Below are positions 6,844-59,098 of a DNA stretch of 64,000 nt, piece after piece. Each line of letters opens with the position of its first letter. The first letter of the stretch is position 1. The notes under the pieces were generated by a model that saw only the letters and a program-made list of their open reading frames with translations, had not been told where the DNA came from and ran no database searches. Position numbers and translations under genes: made by a program. The stretch spans positions 34,783-98,782 of IMG/VR virus record IMGVR_UViG_3300037840_000227; one strand, given 5' to 3'. Source of the DNA: a virus.

Positions 6844-9593
6844 TGTCTTTCGAATCTTGCATCGACGGCATGATTGCTCGCGCTGAAATCTCCCGCGACG
6901 AGGGCGAGGAGATGAAGCGTCGCTATCGTGACGCCCTGCGCAGCGGGAGGGCGCCCCCGCTTGCCCGCGACGAAGCGCAGCGGCAAATGGACATTGCCGG
7001 CGTTCGCTCGCGCTGGCGCGAGAATGCATCGATCCAAGCGCTCGATCAGATCAAGAAAGACCTCATCTCCTTCCGGGATCCGTGGGGACGCCAGAATATC
7101 GTTGAAGCCGGCTACAACCTCTTCGAAAACTTCGGCTATGCTGGCTACCCGGCGGTGAAGCAACTCGGCGAAGCCTACATCGGCCTGATGCACAGCCGCC
7201 TCACCGATTATCTCCAGGCCTATGAGCGCAAAGCCATCACCGGGCGCCGTCGCGGCGGTAGGGCGCTCGACAAGGACATCAAGCGCGCGCTCTTCGGCGA
7301 GCGCGCCCCGCCGCGCGCAACGGCCTTGGCGAAATTGCTCAATCAAGAGTTTGAGTTCGCCCGGCAGACGTTCAATCGCTTTGCCGGTCCGGGCAGCATC
7401 CCTAAGATGGAGAATTGGGGCGGTCCGCAGGGGCATGACGACGCCGCCCTCTTGCGCTTCGGCCAGAGCAAGATTCCGGCGGGCTGGGATCGCGATTACA
7501 TCAAAGGCCTCGAGAAGCAGTTCCCCAACAATCCCCAAGCCTTCTCCAAGGAGGCCTGGGTGCGCTGGACGCATCCAAAACTCAATTGGACGAAGATGTG
7601 GGACCCGCTCACCGGCGAGCATTACCCCGCCTCCATGCCGCAGGAGAAGTCCTTCGCCATTCTCCACCATGTCTGGGAGACCGTGGCGACGGACGGCAAG
7701 ATCAATATGCCCCCAAGCCGCCAGGCCGTGGGGCGCGGCTCCGTCGCCACATCTCGTTCCGATCATCGCTTTCTGATTTTCAAGGATGCCGACTCGGCGG
7801 AAGAGTACAATCGTGAATGCGGCTCTGGCTCCGGCTTCAACCAGACGATGAATCACCTGCACGGGATGTGGCGGGACATCGCTCTGATGCACCGCTTCGG
7901 GCCCAACCCGAATGGCACAGTCATGTGGCTCAAGCAGGCGATCGAGGAGCAATCGAACTTCCTGAAGACCGGCCACCCCAACATGTTGCCGACGCGGGCG
8001 AAGGGCTTTATTGGCCGCGCCCATGCGCCAATAGCCCACACGCCGCGCAACACCGCCGTCAAGACCGCCCATGCTCTGCGGACGATTGATGGCTTCTGGG
8101 AACAGCTCAATGGCTACAATGCCGCGCAGAATAACCTCGCGCTCGCCGGCACGATCATGCGTAACTGGACGCTCGGCTCATTGCTGGGCTCTTCGGTGAT
8201 CCCGCATGCCGTCGCCAACCCAGCCATTCAAATGTATGCCCATTACGAGGGCGGCCTGCCAGTCGCGCGGGTGATCCCAGACTTCCTCCGTGCGCTCTAT
8301 AACCGCTCGAGGCCAGAGGAGATGCTCCGGGCCGGCGTTGATACGGAGAATGCGCTCTTCCAGATCGGCTCGCTTGCCCGGCAGCAGTCGGCATTCGCCA
8401 AGGTCGCCAACTGGACGCGGTGGCTCCCTGACCGGACAACCCACTGGTCACAGCTCATCCCCTTCCTTGACGCCTTCAAGGCCGCTCACTTCCGCGGCTC
8501 GATGGCCTATCTTTCTGATTTGCGGAAAATGTCGTGGGACAAATTGCCATCCCGCCTCAAGGGCAAGCTGCAGGGCTACGGCATCCGCGAGCCGGATTGG
8601 AAGGTGATGCAGCTCGCGCCGGAGTATCAGCCAGTCGACATGTCAGCCAATTGGATGCGCGCGACTGACATCGCCAATATGCCGGCGGAGACGCCAGAGC
8701 AGATCAAGGCGATTCTCACCGCGGCGGGGCGGCAATCGCTCGATCCGACGAACGATCAGCCGATCGCCCGGCAGGTTGCATTCGATACGGCGGTGAAATT
8801 CGTGACTTGGATGGTGGGCGAGCGCGAGGTTGCGGTTCCGCAATCCTCCATGCGGATGCGCGCCGAGTTCCTCGGCACCGCCAAGAAGGGAAGCTACTGG
8901 GGCGAACTCGCGCGTAACGCCTTCCAGTTCAAGGGTTTCGTCGGCGCGTTCATGGTGACGCAATCCCAGGCGATCAAGCGCGAGCTGGGCGGCAGCAAGC
9001 TGGGCGGCATCGGCTTAGCTAGCACCATGTTTATCGTGCTCTCCTTGCTCGGCATGGTGAGCCTCCAACTCAAACAGGCGCGCAGCGGCAAGGATTTCTT
9101 GCCGATGAACCCCGATTCCACCTCAGGCATTGCCACATGGGCGCGCGCCATCCTGACGAGCCTATCCTTTGGCTTCGCCGGCGATTTCCTCGCCGCCGAT
9201 CACACCAGCTATGGCCAGGGTCCATTCGAGACGCTTTTGGGGCCCGCGACGGCCCTCCCGGTCAGTGCCTATGAAATGGCCAAGGGGGCAGTCGAGAACC
9301 TCGGCGGCGGCTCGCGGTCCCGCAAGCCGTTCTCCGAGACGGCGGCGGATGCAGCCATAAAGCTCCTGCGGATGCAAACACCGTTCCTGTCAACGGCGTG
9401 GCCGTTCGCCGCCGCCTACAACCGCTTGGTGCTCGACAAACTGCATTACATGATGAACCCCGAGGCGCACCGAGAGGACAGGCTTGGCGAAGAGCGCCTG
9501 CGCAAACAGACGGGAGGCCAAAGTTTCTTCTGGCGTCCCGGCGAGAGCGCGCCGAGCCGCCTGCCGCAGTTCACCACCGCGCCGCCGCGCTAG
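6843..9593 (+). CDS. Large internal virion (ejection-type) protein
   Basis: 916 aa helical protein with hydrophobic C-terminal segments, ending FFWRPGE..P.R.P. Position and size are typical of podovirus ejection genes. Confidence 0.65.
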   Translation: MSFESCIDGMIARAEISRDEGEEMKRRYRDALRSGRAPPLARDEAQRQMDIAGVRSRWRENASIQALDQIKKDLISFRDPWGRQNIVEAGYNLFENFGYAGYPAVKQLGEAYIGLMHSRLTDYLQAYERKAITGRRRGGRALDKDIKRALFGERAPPRATALAKLLNQEFEFARQTFNRFAGPGSIPKMENWGGPQGHDDAALLRFGQSKIPAGWDRDYIKGLEKQFPNNPQAFSKEAWVRWTHPKLNWTKMWDPLTGEHYPASMPQEKSFAILHHVWETVATDGKINMPPSRQAVGRGSVATSRSDHRFLIFKDADSAEEYNRECGSGSGFNQTMNHLHGMWRDIALMHRFGPNPNGTVMWLKQAIEEQSNFLKTGHPNMLPTRAKGFIGRAHAPIAHTPRNTAVKTAHALRTIDGFWEQLNGYNAAQNNLALAGTIMRNWTLGSLLGSSVIPHAVANPAIQMYAHYEGGLPVARVIPDFLRALYNRSRPEEMLRAGVDTENALFQIGSLARQQSAFAKVANWTRWLPDRTTHWSQLIPFLDAFKAAHFRGSMAYLSDLRKMSWDKLPSRLKGKLQGYGIREPDWKVMQLAPEYQPVDMSANWMRATDIANMPAETPEQIKAILTAAGRQSLDPTNDQPIARQVAFDTAVKFVTWMVGEREVAVPQSSMRMRAEFLGTAKKGSYWGELARNAFQFKGFVGAFMVTQSQAIKRELGGSKLGGIGLASTMFIVLSLLGMVSLQLKQARSGKDFLPMNPDSTSGIATWARAILTSLSFGFAGDFLAADHTSYGQGPFETLLGPATALPVSAYEMAKGAVENLGGGSRSRKPFSETAADAAIKLLRMQTPFLSTAWPFAAAYNRLVLDKLHYMMNPEAHREDRLGEERLRKQTGGQSFFWRPGESAPSRLPQFTTAPPR

Positions 9594-9655
9594 CCGACTC
9601 TCGTCTAAATGTGGTAGCTATCCCCTCAAGCGCCACAATGGGCAGGGATTAGCCG

Positions 9656-10276
9656 GTGTCGACCTCACTGGACATCATCGACGGAATTCCAGATCAAATC
9701 GCGTATAAAGCGCCATGCGCTTGCGCTACTACAGGAGATTTAACTAATTCTATGATTGGGCTGATAACCGTGGATGGTTATCAGCTACTTCCGAACGACA
9801 GAGTATTGGTTTGGCAGAATAGTGATGAACGTACCAATGGAGTCTACAACGCCTCTACTGGAGCATGGGTACGGGCGGTCGATTTCACCTCAACATCTGC
9901 TATAGGAGCGGGCACGCAGGTCTACGTCTACAACGGCGTTACTTACGCCGGCTCTGTCTTTGTTTGCCAAGCCCAAATGCCAGTCGTCGGCACATCGCCG
10001 ATCACCTTCAATCGCCTTTCCATGTCGACCGCGCCAAATGTGGCGCAGCTCCCGATTACGCCCGGCCAGGCCAAGCGGGCGCTGGCGACGCTCGGCTACA
10101 ATGTCGAGACACTCGAGATGGCCATCCCGGCAGATAGCCAAAACTCGATCAACATCGCCATGAATGACGCCTTCTGGCCGATCGGCGGCGCGGCGTGGGC
10201 TTTCGTGCAGTCAACCTACGGCATTACTGGCGCGCAGGTGACGGCGATCCAAAACACGGCGACGACAAATCGATGA
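9656..10276 (+). CDS. Tail fibre anchor/adaptor-like protein
   Basis: ATTGDL...GLITVDG...NDRVLV.Q.....NGVY...GAWVRA.DF, a motif common at the N-terminus of phage tail fibres. Confidence 0.7.
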   Translation: MSTSLDIIDGIPDQIAYKAPCACATTGDLTNSMIGLITVDGYQLLPNDRVLVWQNSDERTNGVYNASTGAWVRAVDFTSTSAIGAGTQVYVYNGVTYAGSVFVCQAQMPVVGTSPITFNRLSMSTAPNVAQLPITPGQAKRALATLGYNVETLEMAIPADSQNSINIAMNDAFWPIGGAAWAFVQSTYGITGAQVTAIQNTATTNR

Positions 10277-43307: not shown

Positions 43308-43553
43308 ATGATCAAGATGCTTTTAGCTAGCCTTGTCATCTCTCTAGCTCCGGCGGCAGCCGTAGCAGAGGAACACCACGGCGGCGGCGGCCATCATGGC
43401 GGCGGTGAGATGCACCGCGGCGGCGGCGATCGCCACGGCGGCGGTGAGATGCACAGAGGTCATCACCACGGCGGATTCGGGGGATGGGTAACGCCTTGCT
43501 ATGATGCATATGGTAACGTGGTTCCCTGTATCTTTGACGGCGAAGACGACTGA
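43308..43553 (+). CDS. Exported His/Gly-rich protein
   Basis: Signal peptide followed by HHGGGG/GGGEMHRG repeats. Confidence 0.6.
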   Translation: MIKMLLASLVISLAPAAAVAEEHHGGGGHHGGGEMHRGGGDRHGGGEMHRGHHHGGFGGWVTPCYDAYGNVVPCIFDGEDD

Positions 43554-44776: not shown

Positions 44777-45118
44777 CTAAGTCTCAAGCTTGCCGTTGAC
44801 TACGGCATCATAGAAATGGCGTAAGGCGATCTCGCGGGGGTGCTGATTTACGCTGCGCCACAATTCCTCGTTGAGGTTGTGTATGCCCGCGGCGATAATC
44901 TTGCTCGCCTCATCGAGTGTAAGTCCGGTGATCGTCGGCAGGATGACAATCCTGGCGAGCGCGCCGGCGACGGTGATGCTGGTGCTTGCCTCTAGGAAGT
45001 CTTTATCAAGCGGCTTGTTCCAGGGATGGCCCGACGATGTCGGCTTCGCTATCGGCTGGACAAAGTCGCCAAGCCTCTCGCAGATCGCATCCACGGCGGC
45101 GGTATGGGTATCCGACAT
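44777..45118 (-). CDS. N-tag array protein A11
   Basis: Begins MSDTHTAAVDAICERLGDF. Confidence 0.75.
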   Translation of the reverse strand: MSDTHTAAVDAICERLGDFVQPIAKPTSSGHPWNKPLDKDFLEASTSITVAGALARIVILPTITGLTLDEASKIIAAGIHNLNEELWRSVNQHPREIALRHFYDAVVNGKLET

Positions 45119-45436
45119 TCACATCTCCTCAATCGCACCGCCGCGCGTCATGAAACCATCAAGGATGGCGAGACGATCCGAATGGTGCGCATAGCGCCAG
45201 ATAAGAGGGCCAATATCCCTAACGCCATTGGCTAACAGCGCGGCAAATTGCGACTGGGATAGTGGGGCGCCACTGAGAAGCAAAGAAAGGGCAACCGTTA
45301 CGGAATCAAGATCGGCGGCCATATCGAGCAGCCCATCGCTCGGCTGCCAGAAAGCAAGGGGGTGCCGCGTTGGCGCGATGTAATCCTCAAGGCGCTCCGT
45401 GATCGCATCCACGGCGGCGGCGTGATTATTGGCCAT
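45119..45436 (-). CDS. N-tag array protein A10
   Basis: Begins MANNHAAAVDAITERLEDY. Confidence 0.75.
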   Translation of the reverse strand: MANNHAAAVDAITERLEDYIAPTRHPLAFWQPSDGLLDMAADLDSVTVALSLLLSGAPLSQSQFAALLANGVRDIGPLIWRYAHHSDRLAILDGFMTRGGAIEEM

Positions 45437-45692
45437 GGACAATCCCCATAAACGCCGCATCCTTGACCCGATACCCGGTCCGTACACTCGTCTTTCCGTC
45501 CATCAGCAGCCAGGTAATGGACATCCTATCGCCATCGAGACGAATCGACTCCACCGTGCCGACTCCCGGCACATAATCGCCTAAGCGCAGATCGCCCATG
45601 CAGGGGTGGTGCGCAACTGCGGCGGCCGGCGCGATGTAATCCCCGAGGTGCGCGGTAATTGCCTCAACGGCCTTGGCGTGATTGGTGCTCAA
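45426..45692 (-). CDS. N-tag array protein A9
   Basis: TTG start; STNHAKAVEAITAHLGDY; DLRLGD. Confidence 0.75.
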   Translation of the reverse strand: MSTNHAKAVEAITAHLGDYIAPAAAVAHHPCMGDLRLGDYVPGVGTVESIRLDGDRMSITWLLMDGKTSVRTGYRVKDAAFMGIVHGQ

Positions 45693-45970
45693 AACGGAAT
45701 CTCGTCGGTTTTGACTATTGCTTCGCGAGGCACGACAATGCCGTATGTGCGATTGACGCCTATCGAGAGGTGAATGCAATCGTCAATCAGCACAACTCGG
45801 TATACATCGAGCCACTTTCCGCCCCACCATAGCTTATCGCCATTCCGCAACTGCCAGGCATGGATTTCGGTATACATCCCCGTCGGTTTAGCATTCGTCA
45901 CGCGCTCATAATCCGCAATCGCTTCGCATATTTCCGCTACGGCGCGGGCGTGGGCCTCATTCATCGCCAA
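45689..45970 (-). CDS. N-tag array protein A8
   Basis: NEAHARAVAEICEAIADY; QLRNGD. Confidence 0.75.
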   Translation of the reverse strand: MAMNEAHARAVAEICEAIADYERVTNAKPTGMYTEIHAWQLRNGDKLWWGGKWLDVYRVVLIDDCIHLSIGVNRTYGIVVPREAIVKTDEIPF

Positions 45971-46245
45971 ACCTCGAGCGAGGCGCTGTTTTTGTAGAAA
46001 TCGCCGATAATCTCCGTGGTGCCCTCAAAGAATATTTCCCGAAAGGACGAAGGCGGCGCGTCCCTTATTTTCGTAATTGCGACAAGGCAGTCGCCAATCC
46101 CGGGCGGCGAACAGCGAACCTTATCGCCGACGCGCAGGTCAGCCACGAACACTCGGCCAAGACACCGCGGTCCCCTCTTCTCCTCGAATCCGTAATCCGC
46201 GAGGTGTGCGACAATCTCTTCGACGGCGGCGCTATGATCAGCCAC
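45961..46245 (-). CDS. N-tag array protein A7
   Basis: MADHSAAVEEIVAHLADY; DLRVGD. Confidence 0.75.
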   Translation of the reverse strand: MADHSAAVEEIVAHLADYGFEEKRGPRCLGRVFVADLRVGDKVRCSPPGIGDCLVAITKIRDAPPSSFREIFFEGTTEIIGDFYKNSASLEVWR

Positions 46246-46480
46246 GGATCACCTCGACTGGAGTATGGCGGTCTAAAAAAGAACACCAGTTATGTATCCC
46301 TGGACCGTCCAACCAAAAGAGCGTGACAGTCTTCTTGCGGTGCTGGACGCGAGTGACAACGCCATAGCCAGGAACGATATCGCCGGCACGGACCGCCGCC
46401 GCACGGATCGTTCGGGGCCTTGGCTCGAGTTCCGAGATACGCTCCAAGATCGCCTCAACGGCTTGAGCGTGATCGTTCAC
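46238..46480 (-). CDS. N-tag array protein A6
   Basis: MNDHAQAVEAILERISEL; AVRAGD. Confidence 0.75.
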   Translation of the reverse strand: MNDHAQAVEAILERISELEPRPRTIRAAAVRAGDIVPGYGVVTRVQHRKKTVTLFWLDGPGIHNWCSFLDRHTPVEVIRG

Positions 46481-46704
46481 TACTCGAACTCCCAATCCTG
46501 TAGATCATGCGCCACGGCGGCGCAGGCGAGCCTATAGCGGCGCATCACGGCGTCGCTGATGGGGTGAGGCTTGGTGCGATAAACGCCGTCCTCGATGTTC
46601 TGGATCGCAGCAACCGAGTATCCAATGAGCCTAGATAGCTGCGGGCGATTATAGCGATTGCGCAAGCGCCACGTCTTTGCTTGCTCGCCGGTTGCTTGTG
46701 TCAC
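46480..46704 (-). CDS. XRE-family HTH protein (untagged, inside the array)
   Basis: AKTWRLRNRYNRPQLSRLIGYSVAAIQNIEDG...RLACAAV. Confidence 0.75.
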   Translation of the reverse strand: MTQATGEQAKTWRLRNRYNRPQLSRLIGYSVAAIQNIEDGVYRTKPHPISDAVMRRYRLACAAVAHDLQDWEFE

Positions 46705-46913
46705 GATGGCGTATCCTTTCCTGAGTCTATGTCATAGCCACACATGGCGGCGTAATCCTTGAGGAACGCATCCCAGTCGAAGCTGGTGAGGCGGCTGCGT
46801 AAATTTAGTTGCGCCTCCACCCATGAATAGGCGTTGAATTTTGGCGCAGCGGGAGGCTGATACGGCTCCATCCGCTCTAGGATTGCGGCGACTTTCTGTG
46901 CGTGATCCGTCAT
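46701..46913 (-). CDS. N-tag array protein A5
   Basis: MTDHAQKVAAILERMEPY. Confidence 0.75.
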   Translation of the reverse strand: MTDHAQKVAAILERMEPYQPPAAPKFNAYSWVEAQLNLRSRLTSFDWDAFLKDYAAMCGYDIDSGKDTPS

Positions 46914-47281
46914 AGGATTCCCCCCAGAACTCCACCAAACCAAGAACGAAGATGCTGCGGCTTCTCGGCGTCAAGCAGCGTAAGCGCCACCTTGCGCCGA
47001 TATGCTATCTCTTCAGCAGGCCTGCCGAGAAGTGTCGACACCTCATGCGCGACGAAAACATTGAGAAGGTGTATGCTAGGCCTATCTATTCCTTGACGGG
47101 CCAAATCCAGCTTTTTCTGAGCGACGATCGCTTGCATCTGAGCGAGTGAGAGTCCCGACTGCGCCCAGGGTGGCGCGCTCGCGCCCGCATCACTGCCCGG
47201 CGCGACAGCTACCGGCGGCGGCGCATATTCCTCCGCCTTGTGCAGGATTGCCTCGACTTCGGCGGCGTGCTTCTGGTTCAT
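46910..47281 (-). CDS. N-tag array protein A4
   Basis: MNQKHAAEVEAILHKAEEY. Confidence 0.75.
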   Translation of the reverse strand: MNQKHAAEVEAILHKAEEYAPPPVAVAPGSDAGASAPPWAQSGLSLAQMQAIVAQKKLDLARQGIDRPSIHLLNVFVAHEVSTLLGRPAEEIAYRRKVALTLLDAEKPQHLRSWFGGVLGGIL

Positions 47282-47550
47282 TTCTCTTCTCTGCGTCTTA
47301 TGAGGAGCATGGCTTCACAGGGCCAGTAACGCTGAGGCATAAAGCGCGCATTGGTGAGAAATATCATCTGGTTGTTAAAGAACTTAACTCCCAGCACTTC
47401 AAGCTCTCCTCCGCTATGCTCGTCAAGAAGCACGGTATCGCCGACTAAGACACAATCGGCGCGGGTAAGATGGCCGCGACTGGCGCGGGGTGCGCGATAG
47501 GCGTCCATCTTCTCCAGAATGTTCTCAACGGCTTGCTGATGATCGTTCAT
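47278..47550 (-). CDS. N-tag array protein A3
   Basis: MNDHQQAVENILEKMDAY; VLVGD. Confidence 0.75.
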   Translation of the reverse strand: MNDHQQAVENILEKMDAYRAPRASRGHLTRADCVLVGDTVLLDEHSGGELEVLGVKFFNNQMIFLTNARFMPQRYWPCEAMLLIRRREEK

Positions 47551-47825
47551 AGCAATCCCCGCTCTTTGCATTCGTTATAGGAGGGCGGGACAATTAGAAT
47601 CAGCATGCAGTGCTCCCAATCAATGTCTTTGCCGCCTTCGGTATGCGCATTAATCCACTCTCCCTCGCGCCCTATCTTCAAAATCCGTTCCTGACAAAAG
47701 GCAAGGATGTCGCCTACGCGTAAGTCCCGAGCGAGCACCGGGATACTTTCTTGCGGCGGCTGGTAATAAGGCCCCATCGCATCGAAAATCTCATCGACTG
47801 CCTTGGCGTGCGAGATGCGACTCAC
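47547..47825 (-). CDS. N-tag array protein A2
   Basis: MSRISHAKAVDEIFDAMGPY; DLRVGD. Confidence 0.75.
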   Translation of the reverse strand: MSRISHAKAVDEIFDAMGPYYQPPQESIPVLARDLRVGDILAFCQERILKIGREGEWINAHTEGGKDIDWEHCMLILIVPPSYNECKERGLL

Positions 47826-48118
47826 GATTCAATCGCTCCGATCTTGTACAGCCAGTTGTAGATGGCCGTCGTGCGCAGGCTGTGGCTGGCCTGTTGCCAG
47901 TCGAAATTGACGCATCCGCTCATAGTGGGGCCTTCCGCGGACTGGAGAGTACGTGGAAGTTGTTGGGCGAGCCACATTACAGCGCGTCCGTAGTCGTCAT
48001 ACCTCGCAGCCTTGAAGGCGAGAGCGCGGGCCACGGGATTGGGGAGCCGAGACGTTGCGGGCGCGCTGTAATCCTGCATACGCTCTAGGATGTCCTGGAC
48101 AGCTTGGGCGTGGGTCAA
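47822..48118 (-). CDS. N-tag array protein A1
   Basis: GAAGGAG RBS; MTHAQAVQDILERMQDY. Confidence 0.75.
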   Translation of the reverse strand: MTHAQAVQDILERMQDYSAPATSRLPNPVARALAFKAARYDDYGRAVMWLAQQLPRTLQSAEGPTMSGCVNFDWQQASHSLRTTAIYNWLYKIGAIES

Positions 48119-48478: not shown

Positions 48479-48940
48479 TCAGGCTCGCGCATTCGCCTTT
48501 GCGTTCCAGACTGCTTCCACCATATTCTCTGCGTCGGGCGGCCCTGCCTCGTTCGGTGTCCAGGTGCGCCAATCGTCGCCGGAATATTTGCCGTCTAGCT
48601 CCTTCTCCAAGACGGCGCACACTTCATCGGAAATATCCAGCCACGCGGCCTGGTAGATTTCCGCGCCGGTCATTTCGCCTTGCGAGGTGCGATACTTAGA
48701 ATCGTTGTCGTAATCGCCAACCATCGCGATACGATCACCGCGCCACGCGCCGATAATGGCCGGTCCAGTAAGATCGCCACCGCCTGCGCCGTTCGAGGCG
48801 GACGCCAGTAAAACAATCAACGCGGCGCCGGTTCCGGGATGATTCGCCAATTGCTCCCAGAGCTTCAAGCCGCACCCGAGTCGGTGCGGGTCTATTTGCT
48901 GGCATTTATCGAGGTTAACAACCCTGTGATACTGTCCCAT
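48479..48940 (-). CDS. Conserved-looking phage hypothetical protein with C-tag-like tail
   Basis: MGQY...VNLDK...GLKLWE...GAWRGDRI..VGDY; ends PPDAENMVEAVWNAKANARA. Confidence 0.7.
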   Translation of the reverse strand: MGQYHRVVNLDKCQQIDPHRLGCGLKLWEQLANHPGTGAALIVLLASASNGAGGGDLTGPAIIGAWRGDRIAMVGDYDNDSKYRTSQGEMTGAEIYQAAWLDISDEVCAVLEKELDGKYSGDDWRTWTPNEAGPPDAENMVEAVWNAKANARA

Positions 48941-49012: not shown

Positions 49013-49915
49013 TCAGCCGAGAAAGTCACTCGCCAACTCTAGGATACGTTGCGCTGCGTCTGCCGTCGTCGCCCGTAGGGTTTCATCCTCGCGAAGCTCT
49101 TGAGCGTCATGCCCGCACAGATCGGCGCGCATGGCCTCTACAAGAGCGTCTAGGCGCGAGTCGTTGGTGAGATTGAGCGCCGGCAGGATGTCCACAAGCT
49201 CGCGGACATTATCGACAAGCGATGCCTTGAATGTACCGCTTGCTCGCTGGCCGTCGTCGCCCGGCTGATAGGCGCGGAGCCGTTCAATCATGTGGCTTAC
49301 AGCATCCATGATCCTGGTTTGCGTGTCCTTCATCGCGCCGTCTAGCGCCTGCCGATTAGCTGCCTCGATATCGCGGCGAATATCGCCGGCTTGATCCGCG
49401 TCAAGCTCGACTCGGAAATCAGCGGCGTCTGGGATGGGCAGGATACGGACGTCGAACGCAAAGGCGTCCTCAAGGTCGCTCGCGGGCGGATAATCGGCCT
49501 CGTCAAAAAGGTCGCCAAGCGAGCGCCGCGCGGCTTGAACATGCGCGGTATAGGCGCCCTGAAAATCGCGTACTGCATCCTCGAATGCGGTCTTTGCCTT
49601 GTGAACGGCCTTGCAATACGTGTCGTATGCCTTGGCCGGCAGGATACGGGCGCCGTTGTCGAGCCAAGGAAGCGTATGCTTGTAGTGCGCGGCGCGCGCG
49701 TCGCCAGCGGCAGCGGCGATTGACTTCACGGCTGTCTTGTCCACGAGCGCTTTGGTGAAACGTCCCGAGTCGCTGTTGGCGTGGTTTGTCTCCAGCGTTT
49801 CGGCCGTCGCGCGTTTGTCGAGCTTGCGCGCCTGCCACTGGCGGATGGTGAGGCTCGAAAGCATCGCGCGGGATGCGAGCAAGCCGTTTGTCTGTACTGT
49901 GGTTTGCATGTTCAT
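49013..49915 (-). CDS. DUF3150-like protein
   Basis: AML.SL.I..W.ARKLDK...K.L....TLPW.D.GARILP....F...Y......LGDLF...DYP. Confidence 0.7.
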   Translation of the reverse strand: MNMQTTVQTNGLLASRAMLSSLTIRQWQARKLDKRATAETLETNHANSDSGRFTKALVDKTAVKSIAAAAGDARAAHYKHTLPWLDNGARILPAKAYDTYCKAVHKAKTAFEDAVRDFQGAYTAHVQAARRSLGDLFDEADYPPASDLEDAFAFDVRILPIPDAADFRVELDADQAGDIRRDIEAANRQALDGAMKDTQTRIMDAVSHMIERLRAYQPGDDGQRASGTFKASLVDNVRELVDILPALNLTNDSRLDALVEAMRADLCGHDAQELREDETLRATTADAAQRILELASDFLG

Positions 49916-50588: not shown

Positions 50589-50605
50589 TCCTTTGTCCGC
50601 TAGTT

Positions 50606-50738
50606 AGGCGCAATTCGCCCGGCGCTATCTAAGGCATATAAATACGCTGCTTGCAATGATTAAATGCTGTTGACAGGTGAAAAATAACTGGACTGTCCTA
50701 ACAATCGGGTGTAGGGAAATGGCGGGCGAATTGCGCCT
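50606..50738. promoter_or_regulatory. Divergent promoter region bounded by 16-bp perfect inverted repeats
   Basis: AGGCGCAATTCGCCCG (50606-50621) and CGGGCGAATTGCGCCT (50723-50738) around an AT-rich core containing TTGACA and TTGCAA. Confidence 0.7.
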
Positions 50739-50762
50739 TTTGCACTAATCACGGGGACTCTC

Positions 50763-51836
50763 ATGCACATAATCCAAGCGAAACAATGCCTTAAGGCCTA
50801 TATACAGGCCGGCATTCCGACATTTTTGGAAGGACCGCCCGGTGTCGGCAAGTCGGATATTACCTATCAGGTGTCCGACGAGCTAAGCGCCTATCTTGTC
50901 GAGGAGCGGGCGTCGACTCTTGAGTCTATCGACATGCGCGGGCTTCCGTTCGTTTACAACATCGGGAATCTCGCGAGCGCCCTCGCTGGCGCGCATGCGG
51001 ATAAGGTGCAATCGATCCTCGATCAGATGGAAGTCTATGCCGGCCCAACTGTCCAATGGGCTAAGCCGCATTGGCTGGACGAATTGGAGCGCGCGCCGGC
51101 TGAACAGCTTAAAATTCTCTTCCTCGATGAGCTAGTGCAAGCAAGTCTCGCTGTTCAAGTCGCCTGTTTTCAGTTGGTATGGAATGGCCGAATCGGCCCT
51201 CACAAGCTCCCGCCTCATACCATCGTCGTTGCGGCTGGCAATCGCCAGGCTGACCGCGCCGGCGCCAATCGCATGCCAACGGCCCTCGCCAACCGATTCG
51301 GGCATATCGATGTCGAGGTGGATTCCGACACGTGGCAAAAATGGGCCAACGTCAACGGGATCGAGCCGCTGTTGTGTGCGTTTTTGAAGTTCAGGCCGGC
51401 CTCGCTTCATCGCATGCCGGAAGGCAATGTCAAAGCATTCCCCTCACCGCGCTCCTGGGTGCAAGTGGCGAAGATTCTCCATGCGGCGGATGACATCAGG
51501 CCGAAGCTAATCGAAGGGCTTGTCGGCGAAGGCGATGCAGCCGAGTTGGAGAAGTTCATTCAAATGTACAAACATCTCCCCTCCTTCGCCGAGATTATCG
51601 CTAGGCCTCAGACGGTTGCAGTCCCGACTCAACCGGACATTCAACACGCTGTGGCGTCGATGCTCTCGCGCAAGGCGGATCGGACGAATTTTGATGCAAT
51701 CTGTGTCTATGCCGGCAGATTGCCGAAGGAATTCGAAGTGAGTCTCGTGAGCGAGGCGGTTCAACGCGACGCGGGCTTGAAAACGACGAAGGGCTTTATC
51801 GCTTGGGCATCCCGCAATTCCGACATTACAATCTAA
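50763..51836 (+). CDS. MoxR-type AAA+ ATPase
   Basis: Walker A GPPGVGKS, Walker B ILFLDE, AAGN, ALANRF, PSPRSW. Confidence 0.9.
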   Translation: MHIIQAKQCLKAYIQAGIPTFLEGPPGVGKSDITYQVSDELSAYLVEERASTLESIDMRGLPFVYNIGNLASALAGAHADKVQSILDQMEVYAGPTVQWAKPHWLDELERAPAEQLKILFLDELVQASLAVQVACFQLVWNGRIGPHKLPPHTIVVAAGNRQADRAGANRMPTALANRFGHIDVEVDSDTWQKWANVNGIEPLLCAFLKFRPASLHRMPEGNVKAFPSPRSWVQVAKILHAADDIRPKLIEGLVGEGDAAELEKFIQMYKHLPSFAEIIARPQTVAVPTQPDIQHAVASMLSRKADRTNFDAICVYAGRLPKEFEVSLVSEAVQRDAGLKTTKGFIAWASRNSDITI

Positions 51837-51848
51837 GGAGGGGACGAA

Positions 51849-53006
51849 ATGACGCCCCTACAGGCTAAAGCCGCTGAGCGCATACGGATCGCCCGTATGC
51901 GCGTCATGCTCAAAAATGGATTCTTCGGCGCGCCTCTTATGCAGATGGGCATGCGCGCCGAGGACTCGATTCCAACGATGGGAGTCGACGGCCGACATCT
52001 CTACTACAACGCCAAATGGGTGCTCGATCTCAAGGGCGATGAACTGCAGGGCGTTCTCGTACATGAGGTGCTGCATATCTGCTATCTGCACCATACGCGC
52101 CGAGGGGACCGCGATCCAGAGCTATGGAATGTCAGCGGGGATGCGGTCATTAACCTGGATGTTAAAGCCGCCGGCTTCCAGCTACCTCCCGGCGTTAACA
52201 CCCCAGGCGGGATGATCCAAATACCGGATGCAGCCGGCAAGTCTTGTGAGCAAGTATACAACATGCTCAAGAAGCAAGGCTTCAAACCGGCGCCCGGTCC
52301 TGATCCTGGCGGATGCGGCGGCGTCATGGATGCAGCCAAGCCCCATCAGGTGGTAGCGCTCGGCGAAGCGGAGCGACAGGCGCAACAAATGATCCGGGGC
52401 GCGATGGCTGTTGCGCGCGGGCGCAACGCGGGCAATATTCCATCGGCGCTCGTGCGGATGATGGCCGAACTGGATAAGCCTAAAACGAGTTGGGGCGATA
52501 CGTTCCGAGCTTGGGCGGATGAGGGCCGCAGCTATGATACCGATTGGTGTCGGCCATCGCGGCGCGATCTCGGGAATGGATTTATCCTGCCGTCAACCGT
52601 CTCGATTGCGCCGGCTCATATCGTGGCCTGGGTTGATACGTCTGGCTCCATGTCGCAAGAGGCTCTGAGCGCGATCATGGCGGAGCTTCAGGGGATGCTT
52701 GACGAGCACGTGTGCGACAAGCTCACCATTGGTTATTGCGACACGCGCGTTCAGGGTACGGAGGAGTGTGAGCCGGGCGACATTATCAAATCGGTTCCGC
52801 GCCCTGGCGGCGGTACCGATTTCGCGCCAGCAATGGAGTGGACTCGCCAGAACGTGGAGCGGCCATCGGGTGTCGTGTACCTCACCGATCTGGAATGCCA
52901 CTCGTTCGGCTTTTCGCCTGGGTGTCCCGTTTTGTGGGTGCGGTATGGCTCCTATGGCAATAATCCGCCGTACGGCCGTGTTCTCGAAATCGATCCAAGC
53001 GCATGA
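51849..53006 (+). CDS. HExxH metallopeptidase-like plus VWA domain protein (DUF2201-like)
   Basis: VLVHEVLH...H..RR...WN...D..IN; MIDAS VDTSGSMS, GGGTDF, YLTD. Confidence 0.9.
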   Translation: MTPLQAKAAERIRIARMRVMLKNGFFGAPLMQMGMRAEDSIPTMGVDGRHLYYNAKWVLDLKGDELQGVLVHEVLHICYLHHTRRGDRDPELWNVSGDAVINLDVKAAGFQLPPGVNTPGGMIQIPDAAGKSCEQVYNMLKKQGFKPAPGPDPGGCGGVMDAAKPHQVVALGEAERQAQQMIRGAMAVARGRNAGNIPSALVRMMAELDKPKTSWGDTFRAWADEGRSYDTDWCRPSRRDLGNGFILPSTVSIAPAHIVAWVDTSGSMSQEALSAIMAELQGMLDEHVCDKLTIGYCDTRVQGTEECEPGDIIKSVPRPGGGTDFAPAMEWTRQNVERPSGVVYLTDLECHSFGFSPGCPVLWVRYGSYGNNPPYGRVLEIDPSA

Positions 53007-53254
53007 GCGAGAAAGTCACTCTTACGCCAGAACAAGCGGCAGGATTGCCGACCGGTGTCCAGTGGGAACTCGTGCGCCTCGTGACTGGCAGCGTTGGCGC
53101 GCTGGACGCAGTGAACTTTGGCGCCGGTCGCGCGTTCCCGCTGTATTGGAGCCTTGTACGCAAGTGCTGGTGCTCGGTAGAACCGGACTTGCCACCGTCA
53201 ATGGCAGTCTGGGATGCCATAGATGAGCTACGGGCGACTGAGGCACGCCGATGA
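53003..53254 (+). CDS. C-tag array protein B1
   Basis: Ends VWDAIDELRATEARR. Confidence 0.75.
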   Translation: MSEKVTLTPEQAAGLPTGVQWELVRLVTGSVGALDAVNFGAGRAFPLYWSLVRKCWCSVEPDLPPSMAVWDAIDELRATEARR

Positions 53255-53598
53255 GCAAAGCGCCCAAGCCTCGCAAGCGGCGGTTCGAGCACGTCAAGGC
53301 AGGGGATGTGCTGGTTACCGCGCCGTCTGAGCGATACGGTGTCAGGGGTACGTATTTCGTTGTCGTACTGCTGCGCCAAGTCGATGCGGTATACTGTCAG
53401 ACATGCGATGAGGACGGCAGCCATGCGCGCGGCCCGAAATGGGGTAGTTCCGTTTTGAGATTGGCTCAACAAGGATTCCAGTACGTTTCCGTCTGGCGGG
53501 CTCTCGCGCACCAGGAGCAAGTCGCATCTGTCACGCATGACGCGGATGCGCTGTATGAGGCTATCGAGGCTCTTCGCGAGCGGGAGGCGCGCCGATGA
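53251..53598 (+). CDS. C-tag array protein B2
   Basis: Ends LYEAIEALREREARR; contains HVKAGD. Confidence 0.75.
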   Translation: MSKAPKPRKRRFEHVKAGDVLVTAPSERYGVRGTYFVVVLLRQVDAVYCQTCDEDGSHARGPKWGSSVLRLAQQGFQYVSVWRALAHQEQVASVTHDADALYEAIEALREREARR

Positions 53599-53858
53599 AG
53601 GAGGCGTATGTGATTCTGAACGGGGAGCAATTGCTGAAGTTGCCGGGGGGCACTGGCGCGTATCACCACGCGTGGCTAGACCCGAACGGCTATATCGTTG
53701 CCGAGTCGCTCATGGGCGGTCCTAAACTATTCTGGGCGCCGATATCGCGGGAATGGTGGGAGTACCGCGAAGCGCAGCCGCCCGACGTCTGCGATATGAT
53801 CGAGGCGATTGAGGAATTAAGAGCTTCGGAGGCAGGACGATGGGGCAAGGGCCAATAG
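53595..53858 (+). CDS. C-tag array protein B3
   Basis: Ends MIEAIEELRASEAGRWGKGQ. Confidence 0.75.
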   Translation: MKEAYVILNGEQLLKLPGGTGAYHHAWLDPNGYIVAESLMGGPKLFWAPISREWWEYREAQPPDVCDMIEAIEELRASEAGRWGKGQ

Positions 53859-54178
53859 ACGCGGGCGATCTGCATCGGCGCGCCCTGCGGGTTCTTGCGG
53901 GCGAGAAGATCGATTACTGGGCTCCGCAGCGCGAACTTCCTAGGGATACTCCTTTTGAACTCGCCAATTGGCAGAGGGTGCAATTCACTGGCGCGCTCGT
54001 GGCGATAGACGCAACTGGCTATTACGCGCCTGTCGTGAAGATTAAGAGCCAATGGCATAGGCTATATACCTTTGGCGAGGATTGGGGCAATCGATTGGAA
54101 AATGCACCATCGGCGCCCGATAGCATTGCAATGTGGGATGCTATCGACGCGCTCCGAGCCTCGGAGGCCGGGCGATGA
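53840..54178 (+). CDS. C-tag array protein B4
   Basis: Ends MWDAIDALRASEAGR. Confidence 0.75.
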   Translation: MGQGPIDAGDLHRRALRVLAGEKIDYWAPQRELPRDTPFELANWQRVQFTGALVAIDATGYYAPVVKIKSQWHRLYTFGEDWGNRLENAPSAPDSIAMWDAIDALRASEAGR

Positions 54179-54417
54179 AAGTTCCGAGCGAATTGACGAT
54201 AGAGAGAACCGCCGCGGGCTTGCCTTCTGGCATATGGGAGTACCATCGCGAGAGTTTTGGACTCGTCGCGGAAGATCATTCCGGCGTTCATGCGCCGTAC
54301 TGTTGGAATGTCTACGATGGAGAATGGCGCGTCTTGCTAGGCCGCGCGCACGAGCGTCACGGGCCGCACATTGAAGATGCAATCGAGGAATTGCGCGCCA
54401 GCGAGGCAAGGCGATGA
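54175..54417 (+). CDS. C-tag array protein B5
   Basis: Ends IEDAIEELRASEARR. Confidence 0.75.
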   Translation: MKVPSELTIERTAAGLPSGIWEYHRESFGLVAEDHSGVHAPYCWNVYDGEWRVLLGRAHERHGPHIEDAIEELRASEARR

Positions 54418-54659
54418 AGTTCAACGATCTGACGAGCGATCAGCGCTATTTGCTGTTGCGGGTGAGCAGCGGGCCATGGGAGTTTCATCTCGACGTCAAT
54501 GGCTATCTCGTGGCGACTCATCGCTTCTTGAAGTGGTGTCGATACTGGAGTCCGCTGCGATCAATGTGGCTACCGCTATCGTTAGTGCCGCTCGAAGCGG
54601 CAGCGATCTGGGATGCGATCGAAGAGCTTCGCGCCTCAGAGCGGCGGAACACGAGCTAG
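54414..54659 (+). CDS. C-tag array protein B6
   Basis: Ends IWDAIEELRASERRNTS. Confidence 0.75.
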   Translation: MKFNDLTSDQRYLLLRVSSGPWEFHLDVNGYLVATHRFLKWCRYWSPLRSMWLPLSLVPLEAAAIWDAIEELRASERRNTS

Positions 54660-54913
54660 TGATTTGATTTAATTGATGTTTCAGTCTCTAATGCTGCGTC
54701 GCGCTCTTCATCCATCGTTGATGTCGCCAGCCAGCGGTCATTGGCAAGTCTCGCGACAATCCAATGCGCCAGGCGAGCAACCGACGTCGGCGCTCTCACC
54801 GCGTCGAACATGTCGGTTATCGGAGCGTGCTCGCCACTTGCCAGCACCACGACTCGCCGGATCAGATCGACGCTCGAAACCTCGTCTCGTCGTGCTCTAA
54901 TCTGCCGGTCCAT
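54656..54913 (-). CDS. Hypothetical protein
   Basis: Convergent ORF that bounds the array. Confidence 0.5.
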   Translation of the reverse strand: MDRQIRARRDEVSSVDLIRRVVVLASGEHAPITDMFDAVRAPTSVARLAHWIVARLANDRWLATSTMDEERDAALETETSIKSNH

Positions 54914-55679: not shown

Positions 55680-56441
55680 TTGGCGCGCCGGAACCAACAA
55701 CCTACAATCATCCCCATGCAAGGAAAGAAAAAAAAGCCAGGTGCTTTCGAGCCGCTGACCCCGCAAGAAACGGCCTTCGCCTTGGCTGTCTGCGACGGCG
55801 CAAAGCTTGGCCAAGCTGCAAAACTCGCCGGATACTCCTCCGAGCGTAATCAGGCTTGGCAGCGTCGACACAAGCCGCATATCGCTGCGTTCATCGAAAA
55901 GACGCTGCAGGAACGTGTACAGGCTAGCACGCGCACTTTCGCGAAACGGCTGGCAGCGAAGGGCGATCTACAGGCTCGCACCCTCAAAGAGCTTGAATTA
56001 CTGGCGTTTTCAGACGTGCGCCAGTTTGTGCATTGGAAACGCGAGCCAGCGGTGAATGCGCATGGCGAAGTCACAGGCATCGAAACAGACGTGCAATTGC
56101 GCGACTCTGCGGAGATACCGCCCGAGGCCGCTCGGGTCATCAAGCGCGTGACGAGGCGTGACGGCCTCATGCAAGTCGAGATGCACGACAAGCAGTCGGC
56201 GCTATTCATCCTCGCTAAGACCTTGGGAATGTTGAGCGAAGCATCTGCGCCGCCTGAGACGCCGCGACTCGTTGCAGCGGATCAGAATGCGATGGAAGCC
56301 GCCCGGCGAGTCGCCTTCATGCTGGCGATGGCGAAGCACAACTTACCGCCGCTGATCGAAGGCAAGGCGATCGAAGAGCGGGTTGAAAGCAGGGTTGATG
56401 ATTCGCTCGACAGTAAGACGATAGACGAAACAAAGCCTTAG
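55680..56441 (+). CDS. terS: Terminase small subunit
   Basis: LTPQETAFA.......QAAKLAGYS HTH, P.I.A.I, ELELLAFSD, EMHDK.SAL..LAK.LGM. Likely ATG at 55716. Confidence 0.85.
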   Translation: MARRNQQPTIIPMQGKKKKPGAFEPLTPQETAFALAVCDGAKLGQAAKLAGYSSERNQAWQRRHKPHIAAFIEKTLQERVQASTRTFAKRLAAKGDLQARTLKELELLAFSDVRQFVHWKREPAVNAHGEVTGIETDVQLRDSAEIPPEAARVIKRVTRRDGLMQVEMHDKQSALFILAKTLGMLSEASAPPETPRLVAADQNAMEAARRVAFMLAMAKHNLPPLIEGKAIEERVESRVDDSLDSKTIDETKP

Positions 56442-58135: not shown

Positions 58136-58338
58136 GCCGATCCTCCCTCGAAGTCGGCGCCTCCTCGATCTTTGCGGCGCTCCTGCTGTTTGTCTCCGGC
58201 TGCGTCATCGCCGGCTCCACGACGGATGGCCAAGGGGCCCTCGCCTTTATGGATTTCGTCGCGATGCTCTGGCTGGGCGCCTGGGGGATCGCCGCGGTGA
58301 TCCAACAAATCTTCGGCAACGTGCGGGATGCACCATGA
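58132..58338 (+). CDS. Small membrane protein
   Basis: Two TM segments. Confidence 0.5.
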   Translation: MSRSSLEVGASSIFAALLLFVSGCVIAGSTTDGQGALAFMDFVAMLWLGAWGIAAVIQQIFGNVRDAP

Positions 58339-58547
58339 AATTCTTCACCGTCCGCTGCGCCAAATGCGACGATACCCTCAAGATCGAGGGCCCTCTCGGC
58401 GCCAAGGCGATCGTCGTCTTCGATACCCGCGAGGAAGCGGAACACTTTCTCAAGGTCAGCATCTCAGCGCAGGATCATCCGCTCATGGTTTCGCAAGTCG
58501 ATATCGAAGAGCCAGCAGGAATACCAGCCGGGGAGACCGCGCAATGA
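58335..58547 (+). CDS. Hypothetical protein
   Basis: Coupled ORF; FDTREEAE. Confidence 0.5.
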   Translation: MKFFTVRCAKCDDTLKIEGPLGAKAIVVFDTREEAEHFLKVSISAQDHPLMVSQVDIEEPAGIPAGETAQ

Positions 58548-59098
58548 TCGTAGGTTACGCCCGCGTCAGCAGCGATAGCCAGCATCTCGAACTCCAGCGC
58601 GAGCGCCTCGCCGCCGCCGGTTGCGAGAAAATCTTCGAGGAAAAGGCCGATCGCGCCCAGCTCGAAGCCTGCCTGACGGCGCTGAAAGTCGGCGATACCC
58701 TCGTTATCACCAAACTCGATCGCCTCGGACGATCCGCGATTGATCTTTTACGCACCGTTCATTCGCTCGCCCAGCGCGGCGTCCATTTCAAATCCCTTGG
58801 CGATGCCTGGCTCGATACGTCAACGCCGATCGGGCGATACCTCCTCATCGCCTTCGCCGGCCTCGCCGAGCTCGATCGCGAGTGGATTCTCGAGCGCGCC
58901 GCCGCCGGTCGCGAGAGCGCCCAGAAGATGGGCGTCAAATTCGGGCGCTCCCACGTCCTCACCCTGCATCAATGCGCCGAGGCCAACGCCAGATTGAAGG
59001 AGGGCGAGACCGTCAAGGCCGTCGCCAGGTCCTATAATGTCGATCCCGCCACCATCCGCCGGGCTCGCGGCATGGCTCTGCATGGAGCGATCCGATGA
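58544..59098 (+). CDS. Small serine recombinase (resolvase/invertase family)
   Basis: GYARVSS..Q, GDTLVITKLDRLGRS, DTSTP.G, ER...G, GVKFGR, C-terminal HTH. Confidence 0.9.
   Translation: MIVGYARVSSDSQHLELQRERLAAAGCEKIFEEKADRAQLEACLTALKVGDTLVITKLDRLGRSAIDLLRTVHSLAQRGVHFKSLGDAWLDTSTPIGRYLLIAFAGLAELDREWILERAAAGRESAQKMGVKFGRSHVLTLHQCAEANARLKEGETVKAVARSYNVDPATIRRARGMALHGAIR

Follow-up and report, generated by a model that had tools for sequence, protein, structure and literature searches.

The six small genes B1 to B6 of an uncultured phage are genuine genes and form a lineage-specific, fast-evolving family of small proteins that end in one shared helix. This C-terminal tail may well act as a portable docking handle, and its most likely partner would be the AAA+/peptidase-VWA machine encoded in the same operon; we hold this reading tentatively. 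The tail family appears to be new, as judged by comparison with curated families: none of B1 to B6 gave a match in Pfam, PHROGs, NCBIfam or PADLOC at E ≤ 0.01, and the best profile matches, phrog_12304 (E 0.024) and the CLIP1 zinc knuckle (0.043), were both far short of this threshold. Small orphan genes are abundant in phage genomes, and their organisation is largely obscure. The locus described here is compact and tractable, with six members, a clear division into constant and variable parts, direct evidence of independent recombination of bodies and tails, and a candidate handling machine in the same operon. Once found, the partner of the tail would open six orphan proteins to study together and might also reveal the role of the DUF2201/MoxR pair, for which we know of none.

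The source is a complete virus record of 98,782 bp (98.8 kb), of which we analysed a window of 64,000 nucleotides; positions refer to this window unless stated otherwise. B1 to B6 occupy 53003-54659 on the plus strand, 3' of the genes for a MoxR-like AAA+ ATPase and a DUF2201 protein, and all eight genes from the AAA+ gene to B6 are on this single strand:

50763..51836, plus strand: MoxR-like AAA+ ATPase, first gene of the operon (PF00004, E 6.8e-5; phrog_1297, E 7e-82)
51849..53006, plus strand: zincin-like metallopeptidase (HExxH) fused to a VWA domain, DUF2201_N plus DUF2201 (PF13203, E 2.8e-35; PF09967, E 5.9e-25)
53003..53254, plus strand: B1, 83 aa, beta-meander body, tail WDAIDELRATEARR (codons at 53210-53254); ATGA overlap with the VWA gene
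53251..53598, plus strand: B2, 115 aa, tail YEAIEALREREARR (53554-53598); body unrelated to all other members
53595..53858, plus strand: B3, 87 aa, tail IEAIEELRASEAGR followed by 5 further residues (53799-53858); body z 7-8 to B6
53840..54178, plus strand: B4, 112 aa, tail WDAIDALRASEAGR (54134-54178); body weakly similar to the main type and carrying insertions
54175..54417, plus strand: B5, 80 aa from the ATG at 54175, tail EDAIEELRASEARR (54373-54417); GGAGG upstream, ATGA overlap
54414..54659, plus strand: B6, 81 aa, final gene of the array, tail WDAIEELRASERRNTS (54609-54659); core kept, no following gene on the same strand

An earlier note on this DNA had listed the six tail sequences, which proved exact, and had described the B genes as translationally coupled to the VWA gene. 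Indeed, 4-nt overlaps run from the VWA gene onward: ATGA joins the VWA gene to B1 and then each subsequent pair, so that the VWA gene and B1 to B6 are translationally coupled. The only exception is the B3/B4 junction, which reads ATGG; because this junction loses the stop, B3 extends 5 residues further. A longer GTG frame for B5, starting at 54133, is unneeded, since the ATG with its upstream GGAGG and ATGA overlap suffices. Neither an intrinsic terminator nor a sigma-70-type promoter was found inside the B1 to B6 array. The AAA+ ATPase, the peptidase-VWA and B1 to B6 are made from one operon and co-transcribed.

All six B tails end in PHI-[DE]-A-I-[DE]-[EA]-L-R, a form of the family-wide pattern PHI-PHI-[DE]-PHI-[IL]-[DE]-[EA]-L-R of a C-terminal amphipathic helix. 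When the complete 98,782-bp genome was translated in six frames, AI[DE][EA]LR occurred 6 times (0.08 expected from composition; mean of 0.03 in 100 shuffles), and every occurrence was at the C-terminus of one of B1 to B6, 6-11 residues before the stop. A chance origin of the six tails is excluded. A relaxed 7-residue motif recovered every tail gene that we fetched, with 5 other matches (4 distinct) in six frames of about 1.07 Mb of loci; the true matches all lay within 12 residues of the stop.

The earlier note had named, as the observation that would speak against its proposal, conservation limited to the nucleotides that form the ribosome-binding site (RBS) and start of the next gene, with no codon-level constraint on the AIxxL core. 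More broadly, the tail could be a DNA-level feature only, namely an RBS, an overlapping start or a recombination joint, an idea favoured by the last five codons, which hold the GGAGG and ATGA of the next gene, and by the tail junctions of two relatives (L001 and L086, described below), which are 92-96% identical at the DNA level compared with 82-86% in the flanks. The core behaves differently. Across its nine codons, identity is 83% at codon positions 1 and 2 and 26%, that is, random, at position 3, and 64 of the 94 pairs of codons for the same residue use different codons. Leu is written with 5 codons, Ala and Arg with 4 each and Ile with 3, so that invariant residues have up to five synonymous codons, and the longest identical run between any two tails does not exceed 10 bases. 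B6 retains the core without a downstream gene. These comparisons show that the core is kept by protein-level selection, and a purely DNA-level origin, which they refute for the core, is scarcely credible for the tail as a whole. It stands only for the last 4-5 residues in the window, whose conservation is confounded with DNA-level constraint: the stretch after L-R, A-S/T-E-A-R/G-R, carries the GGAGG and ATGA of the next gene and is not conserved in the relative phage, where it reads RARR, K, AHEH or AKRA. The longer motif given in the earlier note needs this correction for the residues beyond L-R.

We then compared the bodies with the tails removed. Those of B1, B3, B5 and B6 are mutually related (Smith-Waterman z 5-8), in agreement with the distant relationship noticed before. 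B2 and B4 had been singled out as different, which is correct for B2 (z ≤ 0.8 against every other body, and z < 0 against the other bodies in the window) and not for B4, whose body is a weak member of the main type (z 2.4-3.0 to B1 and B5). Through the B5 body, the genes of the window are linked to C2, C3 and C4 of the relative (z 3.2-4.3). Usually, a body consists of a helix and a four-stranded, Trp-rich beta-meander, and the tail helix follows after a Pro-containing linker. An AlphaFold2 model of B6 (pLDDT 79) places helices at residues 8-17 and 60-79 and four strands within 22-54; the last helix is confident, with a pLDDT of about 92 over residues 71-80. Searches with this model gave no fold match (best VIA-align Z 4.1, best BFVD E 0.08, ESM Atlas TM ≤ 0.51).

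The weak best matches of the body were single blades of Kelch, NHL and Reg_prop proteins (Z 3.1-3.6 over 36-40 residues, TM 0.45-0.5), values that are at noise level for a unit this small; Pfam repeat matches of the propeller-blade type were absent from the B bodies. Together with the count of six members, neither more nor fewer, in both of the complete genomes, these blade matches bring up self-assembly, in which six single-blade proteins would form a ring or pseudo-propeller through a helix bundle, with a membrane member as anchor. The fold scores are no better than noise, one of the six proteins in each genome has no blade body, and a strongly acidic helix with a single Arg is poorly suited to self-pairing; we regard such an assembly as very improbable.

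The closest relative is an 87-kb phage (L001) whose complete genome also contains exactly six tail genes and whose VWA protein is 57% identical. Further members are the proteins P0132 and P0133 and a genome fragment (L086). A profile built from six members was searched against 5.8 billion proteins and 1.84 billion representatives and returned only itself and a spurious repeat protein (P0007); a 12-member profile gained P0132 and P0133 only, and scans of IMG/VR and JGI with the tail pattern found L001/L085 and L086 only. As far as these searches reach, the family seems to be limited to a small phage clade, so far only three or four genomes; beside this phage and L001 with its six tail genes, it is represented by two metagenome fragments.

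Tail and body are separable in this clade. Body similarity links 12 of the 14 members; the bodies of B2 and of C1 (11158-11397 in L001) are unrelated, and the C1 body is a hydrophobic membrane anchor that carries the tail after a PPPPGP linker. The proposal of the earlier note that the shared acidic C-terminal helix is a protein-level module found on more than one kind of body is borne out by these two proteins. Between L001 and L086, the first gene after a methyltransferase gene has a body of the C5 type (z 18.7) joined to a tail of the C4 type (92% nucleotide identity), and the next gene has a C5-type tail (95.6% nucleotide identity) on another body. The body DNA itself is unalignable. Bodies and tails have thus been reassorted between the two phages; the tail is portable, and the bodies are hypervariable and fast-evolving.

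These observations bear on the plainest explanation, that B1 to B6 are ordinary tandem paralogs and the tail is the best-conserved helix of an alpha-beta4-alpha fold, packed on the sheet and without any docking role. With one body type common to most members, ordinary paralogy could account for much of the pattern, and the B6 model is one compact set of elements in which the last helix may simply pack on its own sheet, with conserved strand Trp residues that could contact its I/L face. The same tail on the unrelated B2 and the membrane-anchored C1, the reassortment between L001 and L086 and the Pro-rich linker ahead of the helix argue against it. So does the pattern of conservation: L and R are invariant in 14 of 14 members, and the two acidic positions hold either D or E throughout. 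No positions are better conserved than these charged and presumably exposed ones, which vary as little as the hydrophobic ones; this fits an intermolecular contact better than packing inside a protein. We consider plain paralogy unlikely, although it is the strongest of the alternatives.

According to the docking reading, each B protein would consist of a variable body and a constant C-terminal amphipathic helix past a Pro-containing linker. A single partner shared by all six proteins would recognise, in trans, the hydrophobic face and an acidic stripe (D/E, D/E and E, plus the invariant Arg); the bodies would meanwhile diversify, presumably against targets in the host. The partner would most likely, if by a small margin, be the co-transcribed AAA+/peptidase-VWA machine, which we infer because its genes are adjacent to the tail genes. 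The small proteins would then serve this machine as adaptors or be its substrates; their tail would sit in the MIDAS or in the peptidase site and might be cut off there.

Alternatively, the common partner could be a host hub protein that reads short C-terminal peptides, such as a factor in replication, division or transcription, and the tail would dock six bodies with different activities to it. A portable tail with a conserved acidic face would suit this, hypervariable bodies are what an arms race predicts, and half of the tail genes of the relatives are away from the VWA gene: in L001 and in the L086 fragment, a TylF-type methyltransferase gene is what three of the six tail genes follow and are coupled to, a placement that also counts against the peptidase-VWA as the partner. 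The tail form of the relative, NLFD[IVL][IL]DEL, presumably resembles the C-terminal clamp-binding peptides of T4/RB69 proteins. The form found in the window, WDAIEELR, is less like these peptides, and no clamp gene was found in this phage. Docking to a host hub is rather improbable, more so than plain paralogy.

Of the candidate machine, the AAA+ protein scored just under the cut-off for PF07728 and has its Walker A motif at residue 24 and its Walker B motif at residue 119. The VWA domain has a complete MIDAS motif (D263-x-S265-x-S267, T323, D347), which is invariant across 20 relatives, as are H72 and H76 of the peptidase HEVLH motif and also H81. The peptidase gave a weak profile match to the M48 peptidase 3c37 (E 0.0048). 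In an AlphaFold2 model of the peptidase-VWA (pLDDT 81), the VWA domain resembles integrin and vWF A domains (Z 13.4), Rea1-MIDAS (Z 10.6) and NorD (10.5), and superposes on 6qta, 8ql1 and 9qh8 (Z 10.5-10.6). A co-fold of the peptidase-VWA (20-row alignment) with B6 (13-row alignment), Mg and Zn scored 0.00, which is uninformative either way.

MoxR/dynein-class AAA+ proteins with a MIDAS VWA partner grip an acidic residue of their clients, as in Rea1/Mdn1 with the UBL domains of Rsa4, Ytm1 and NLE1, CbbQO with rubisco and NorQD with NOR. The locus shares the MoxR-class AAA+ and the MIDAS VWA with these systems. Their clients are large complexes or UBL domains, whereas here a helix tag is the candidate ligand. 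The tail offers three conserved acidic positions, and an acidic side chain of the ligand is what completes metal coordination at a MIDAS of the integrin or Rea1 type.

Another parallel is provided by the vWA-MoxR systems linked to a zincin peptidase and small, fast-diverging proteins from which a conserved C-terminal peptide is cut off; MIDAS sites bind peptides via an acidic residue (PMC7159879). The same set is present here, with a MoxR-clade AAA+ and a MIDAS vWA in one operon, a zincin-like metallopeptidase and small diverging proteins with a conserved C-terminus. The described modules are bacterial, have VMAP, FtsH, radical-SAM or AP-ATPase partners and contain one precursor gene (PMC7159879), whereas ours is from a phage, has the peptidase fused to the vWA (DUF2201) and includes six tandem genes. 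Our scan of the neighbouring genes turned up no partner of the VMAP, FtsH, radical-SAM or AP-ATPase kind. Four types of precursor have been described, namely FxSxx, RxD, an acidic run of at least 4 and FtsH-associated (Kaur et al. 2020, PMC7159879), and the tail PHI-[DE]-PHI-[IL]-[DE]-[EA]-L-R matches none of them.

The DUF2201/MoxR pair is present in 562 phage records, many of them N4-like or jumbo phages. This phage itself has N4-like traits (phrog_10691 and phrog_684), and N4-like phages inject proteins. Moreover, the small terminase gene follows about 1 kb downstream of the array. The tail might thus be an address for packaging and ejection, by which variable anti-defence proteins enter the virion and are injected with the DNA. 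The T4 internal proteins IPI, IPII, IPIII and Alt follow such a logic, since a short constant terminal peptide (CTS) is found on diverse, fast-evolving, tandem-encoded small proteins of a plastic locus, all thought to be handled by one phage machine (PMC3012670). The CTS, however, is N-terminal and removed by the prohead protease within the scaffold, whereas our tag, which has an unrelated sequence, is found at the C-terminus, and in a phage that is not T4-like. A T4-type N-terminal leader of about 10 residues with a prohead-protease site was not found; the constant element ends 1-12 residues before the stop. The membrane-protein member of the relative would also be hard to package. A packaging signal is accordingly improbable, a little less so than self-assembly and more so than host docking.

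The earlier note had suggested a search for the tail downstream of other DUF2201 genes. At 83 loci with more distant DUF2201 genes (≤ 39% identity), no tail-gene array was present: none had more than one motif-ending ORF on the strand of the gene, and 79 had none at all. The DUF2201 protein therefore clearly works without such tails in most phages, which counts against the peptidase-VWA as their partner.

A lineage-specific stretch of about 28 residues is inserted in the AAA+ protein; it has no counterpart in the 63%-identical L001 protein and contains the N-tag motif known from the left-arm array (residues 78-95). Two address labels, the C-terminal helix of the right-arm genes and the N-terminal helix of the eleven left-arm genes, might mark rapidly reshuffled small adaptors or effectors for handling by a phage MoxR AAA+/zincin-VWA machine, and the copy of the N-label between Walker A and Walker B would be a trace of this link. 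Such a two-label scheme is doubtful, about on a par with host docking or slightly below it; if true, it would amount to a programmable viral system for remodelling or proteolysis.

Two candidate connections between the arms were rejected. The left-arm gene at 48479-48940 was considered as a carrier of a variant C-tag, and the motif excludes it as a member: its end, MVEAVWNAKANARA, has neither the invariant L-R nor more than one of the three acidic positions. The B2 body was considered as a copy of the left-arm "SH3-like payload", and a seven-body profile scored it no better than shuffles; a short local match of the B2 body to left-arm A6 had z 4.1.

The window covers bases 34783-98782 of the virus record. 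That record is complete (98,782 bp, with direct terminal repeats), and Megablast against 50,697 phage records found no near relative. Replication and recombination functions in the window are represented by a primase/helicase, a RecT-like protein and an exonuclease. Other genes encode a phrog_684 virion protein, a small terminase (55680-56441), a serine recombinase (58328-59098) and a protein of 1232 aa that matches phrog_10691, a family of roughly 3900 positions which we take to be of the virion-RNA-polymerase type. The operon that holds the six small tandem genes, B1-B6, starts from a divergent intergenic region at about 50600-50760. In it the small proteins are co-transcribed with an AAA+/peptidase-VWA pair, in this order:

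50763-51836, plus strand, AAA+ ATPase (PF00004; PF07728 just under the cut-off; phrog_1297, E 7e-82)
51849-53006, plus strand, DUF2201_N/DUF2201 protein (PF13203, E 2.8e-35; PF09967, E 5.9e-25)
53003-54659, plus strand, six small genes B1-B6

The DUF2201 protein contains an HExxH motif, with H72, H76 and H81 invariant in 20 relatives, and a complete MIDAS (D263-x-S265-x-S267, T323, D347). Its AlphaFold2 model (pLDDT 81) has a VWA fold, with Z 13.4 to integrin and vWF A domains and about 10.5 to the MIDAS domains of Rea1, MDN1 and NorD. Relatives were found in 562 phage records, many of them N4-like or jumbo phages, all below 60% identity and at approximately 28-31% among the best matches listed.

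The six open reading frames and their shared C-terminal helix (the tail) are exactly as the earlier note had described them. The proposed coupling to the VWA gene was likewise observed: 4-nt ATGA overlaps place the start of each gene on the preceding stop. The B3/B4 junction reads ATGG instead, so that B3 is five residues longer, and for B5 the ATG at 54175 is preferable to the GTG at 54133. In a six-frame translation of the whole genome, AI[DE][EA]LR occurs six times (0.08 expected), and every occurrence lies at the C-terminus of one of B1-B6.

The alternative raised by the earlier note, that conservation is limited to the nucleotides forming the next gene's ribosome-binding site and start, fails for the tail core. 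Across nine core codons, identity is 83% at positions 1 and 2 and 26% at position 3, and 64 of the 94 codon pairs encoding the same residue differ. Leu is encoded by five different codons, Ala and Arg by four each, and no two tails share a stretch longer than 10 bases. The stretch following LR, ASEA[RG]R, doubles as the site of the following gene's GGAGG and ATGA, and relatives do not conserve it; this part is confounded with DNA-level constraint.

No match to the B1-B6 family was found in Pfam, PHROGs, NCBIfam or PADLOC, and a profile built from the six returned nothing beyond its own members from sets of 5.8 billion proteins and 1.84 billion representatives. The closest relative of the DUF2201 protein (57% identity) lies on L001, a complete IMG/VR genome of 87,271 bp with terminal repeats. 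L001 has exactly six tail genes (C1 onward; tail [ND]-[LI]-[FIV]-D-[VLI]-[IL]-[DE]-E-L-R), three immediately after the VWA gene and three approximately 1.4 kb downstream, after a gene that splits the array and is absent from the window:

L001 12550-13332, plus strand, TylF-type O-methyltransferase gene

L086, a 1922-bp fragment from a JGI scan, also has this methyltransferase, together with three tail genes, and its left edge holds the end of a C3-type tail; a 12-member profile added two further proteins, P0132 and P0133. Every one of the 14 members keeps the L and the R of the tail, has D or E at each of the two acidic positions and carries a Pro-containing linker before the helix. The search for tails downstream of other DUF2201 genes, suggested in the earlier note, gave no such array at any of 83 loci whose DUF2201 genes are more distant (39% identity or less). 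Judged by these searches, the tail family is new and its homologues are confined to a small phage clade.

When the tails were removed, the remaining bodies of B1, B3, B5 and B6 proved related (z 5-8) and that of B2 unrelated, as had been claimed; B4, which had been called different, in fact belongs to that type too, though weakly (z 2.4-3.0). A network of body similarity joins 12 of the 14 members and leaves out B2 and C1, whose bodies resemble no other member. C1, the gene directly downstream of the VWA gene in L001, encodes a hydrophobic membrane segment of about 30 residues followed by PPPPGP.

L001 and L086 share 82-86% DNA identity in their flanks and 81% protein identity in the methyltransferase. 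In the comparison of L001 13329-14123 with L086 1298-1922, no blastn alignment was obtained between the bodies of the first two tail genes. The segments that span tail and junction are 92% identical over 49 nt in one case and 95.6% over 91 nt in the other. The first L086 tail gene combines a C5-type body (z 18.7, compared to 2.6 to C4) with a C4-type tail (GPNLFDILDELRK, then stop), and the second carries a C5-type tail on a different body; one body type has shifted position relative to the tails. These mismatches indicate separate histories for bodies and tails. The junctions are constant, with bodies either swapped or diverging very fast, a pattern that suggests cassette exchange at constant junctions. 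The analysis shows that the tail is a portable module, selected at the protein level and carried by small phage proteins that evolve fast.

For B6, the AlphaFold2 model (13-row alignment, pLDDT 79) has two helices, at residues 8-17 and 60-79, separated by four strands in the span 22-54; mean pLDDT is approximately 92 for residues 71-80. No convincing fold match was found among solved or predicted viral structures (best values: VIA-align Z 4.1, BFVD E 0.08, ESM Atlas TM at most 0.51), the weak matches being single propeller blades. On a helical wheel, core positions 1, 3, 4 and 7 form a hydrophobic face and positions 2, 5 and 6 an acidic stripe edged by the invariant Arg, as can be read directly from the sequence; both faces are conserved. 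Self-assembly and plain paralogy are two rival readings of this helix. The conservation of exposed charges, the linker with its Pro, the presence of the tail on foreign bodies and the reassortment lead us to favour a docking handle recognised in trans by one partner over a purely internal structural helix. T4 internal proteins already show the principle seen in B1-B6, variable bodies that share one constant tag at a terminus, and a packaging address like the T4 CTS is a further rival (PMC3012670). The value of the present locus lies in its small size, demonstrable body/tail reassortment and a candidate machine nearby.

For a docking handle, a candidate partner is the AAA+/peptidase-VWA pair, to which the tail genes are adjacent and coupled. 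Published vWA-MoxR systems are linked to a zincin peptidase and to small proteins that diverge but keep their C-terminal peptide (PMC7159879), and MoxR/VWA machines are known to grip clients (PMC13036017). However, half of the relatives' tail genes follow the methyltransferase gene, and DUF2201 occurs widely where there are no tails; a host hub is a rival partner.

A second shared helix occurs in the left arm, where eleven tandem minus-strand genes (44777-48118) carry an N-terminal tag (H-x3-V-x2-I...Y-x-x-P) on dissimilar bodies, interrupted at 46480-46704 by an untagged 74-aa gene. L001 retains this array (5645-7815, minus strand) with five to six members and the same interloper. The motif (H-x3-V-x2-I-x3-M-x2-Y-x2-P) also lies in frame inside the AAA+ gene (50994-51047, residues 78-95, HADKVQSILDQMEVYAGP). 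It falls in an insertion of about 28 residues, located between Walker A and Walker B, which is absent from the 63%-identical AAA+ of L001. Ten of the 18 residues of this copy agree with the tag of gene 46701-46943, the DNA itself showing no similarity, and the pattern gave only two spurious matches in approximately 1 Mb of other loci. It is possibly a physical link between tag and AAA+. Two further left-arm genes have no Pfam or NCBIfam match:

49013-49915, minus strand, 'DUF3150-like' gene, 300 aa
48479-48940, minus strand, 153-aa gene

The L001 ORF list shows no counterpart of either in the stretch from the N-tag array to the AAA+ gene, so neither belongs to the conserved portion of the locus.

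An 85-aa gene without a family match (54656-54913, minus strand) converges on the end of B6 with a 4-nt overlap and has clear homologues at the corresponding position in L001 (11906-12187) and L086 (65-265). In L001, a PNKP-type HAD phosphatase gene (9525-10001, plus strand), absent from the window, separates the AAA+ gene from the VWA gene. Both phages also encode small secreted-looking proteins consisting mostly of His/Gly or His/Asp/Arg repeats (window 43308-43553 and L001 2766-3068, both plus strand; HHGGG..., HHHHDRDRDHHHH), which may bind metal.
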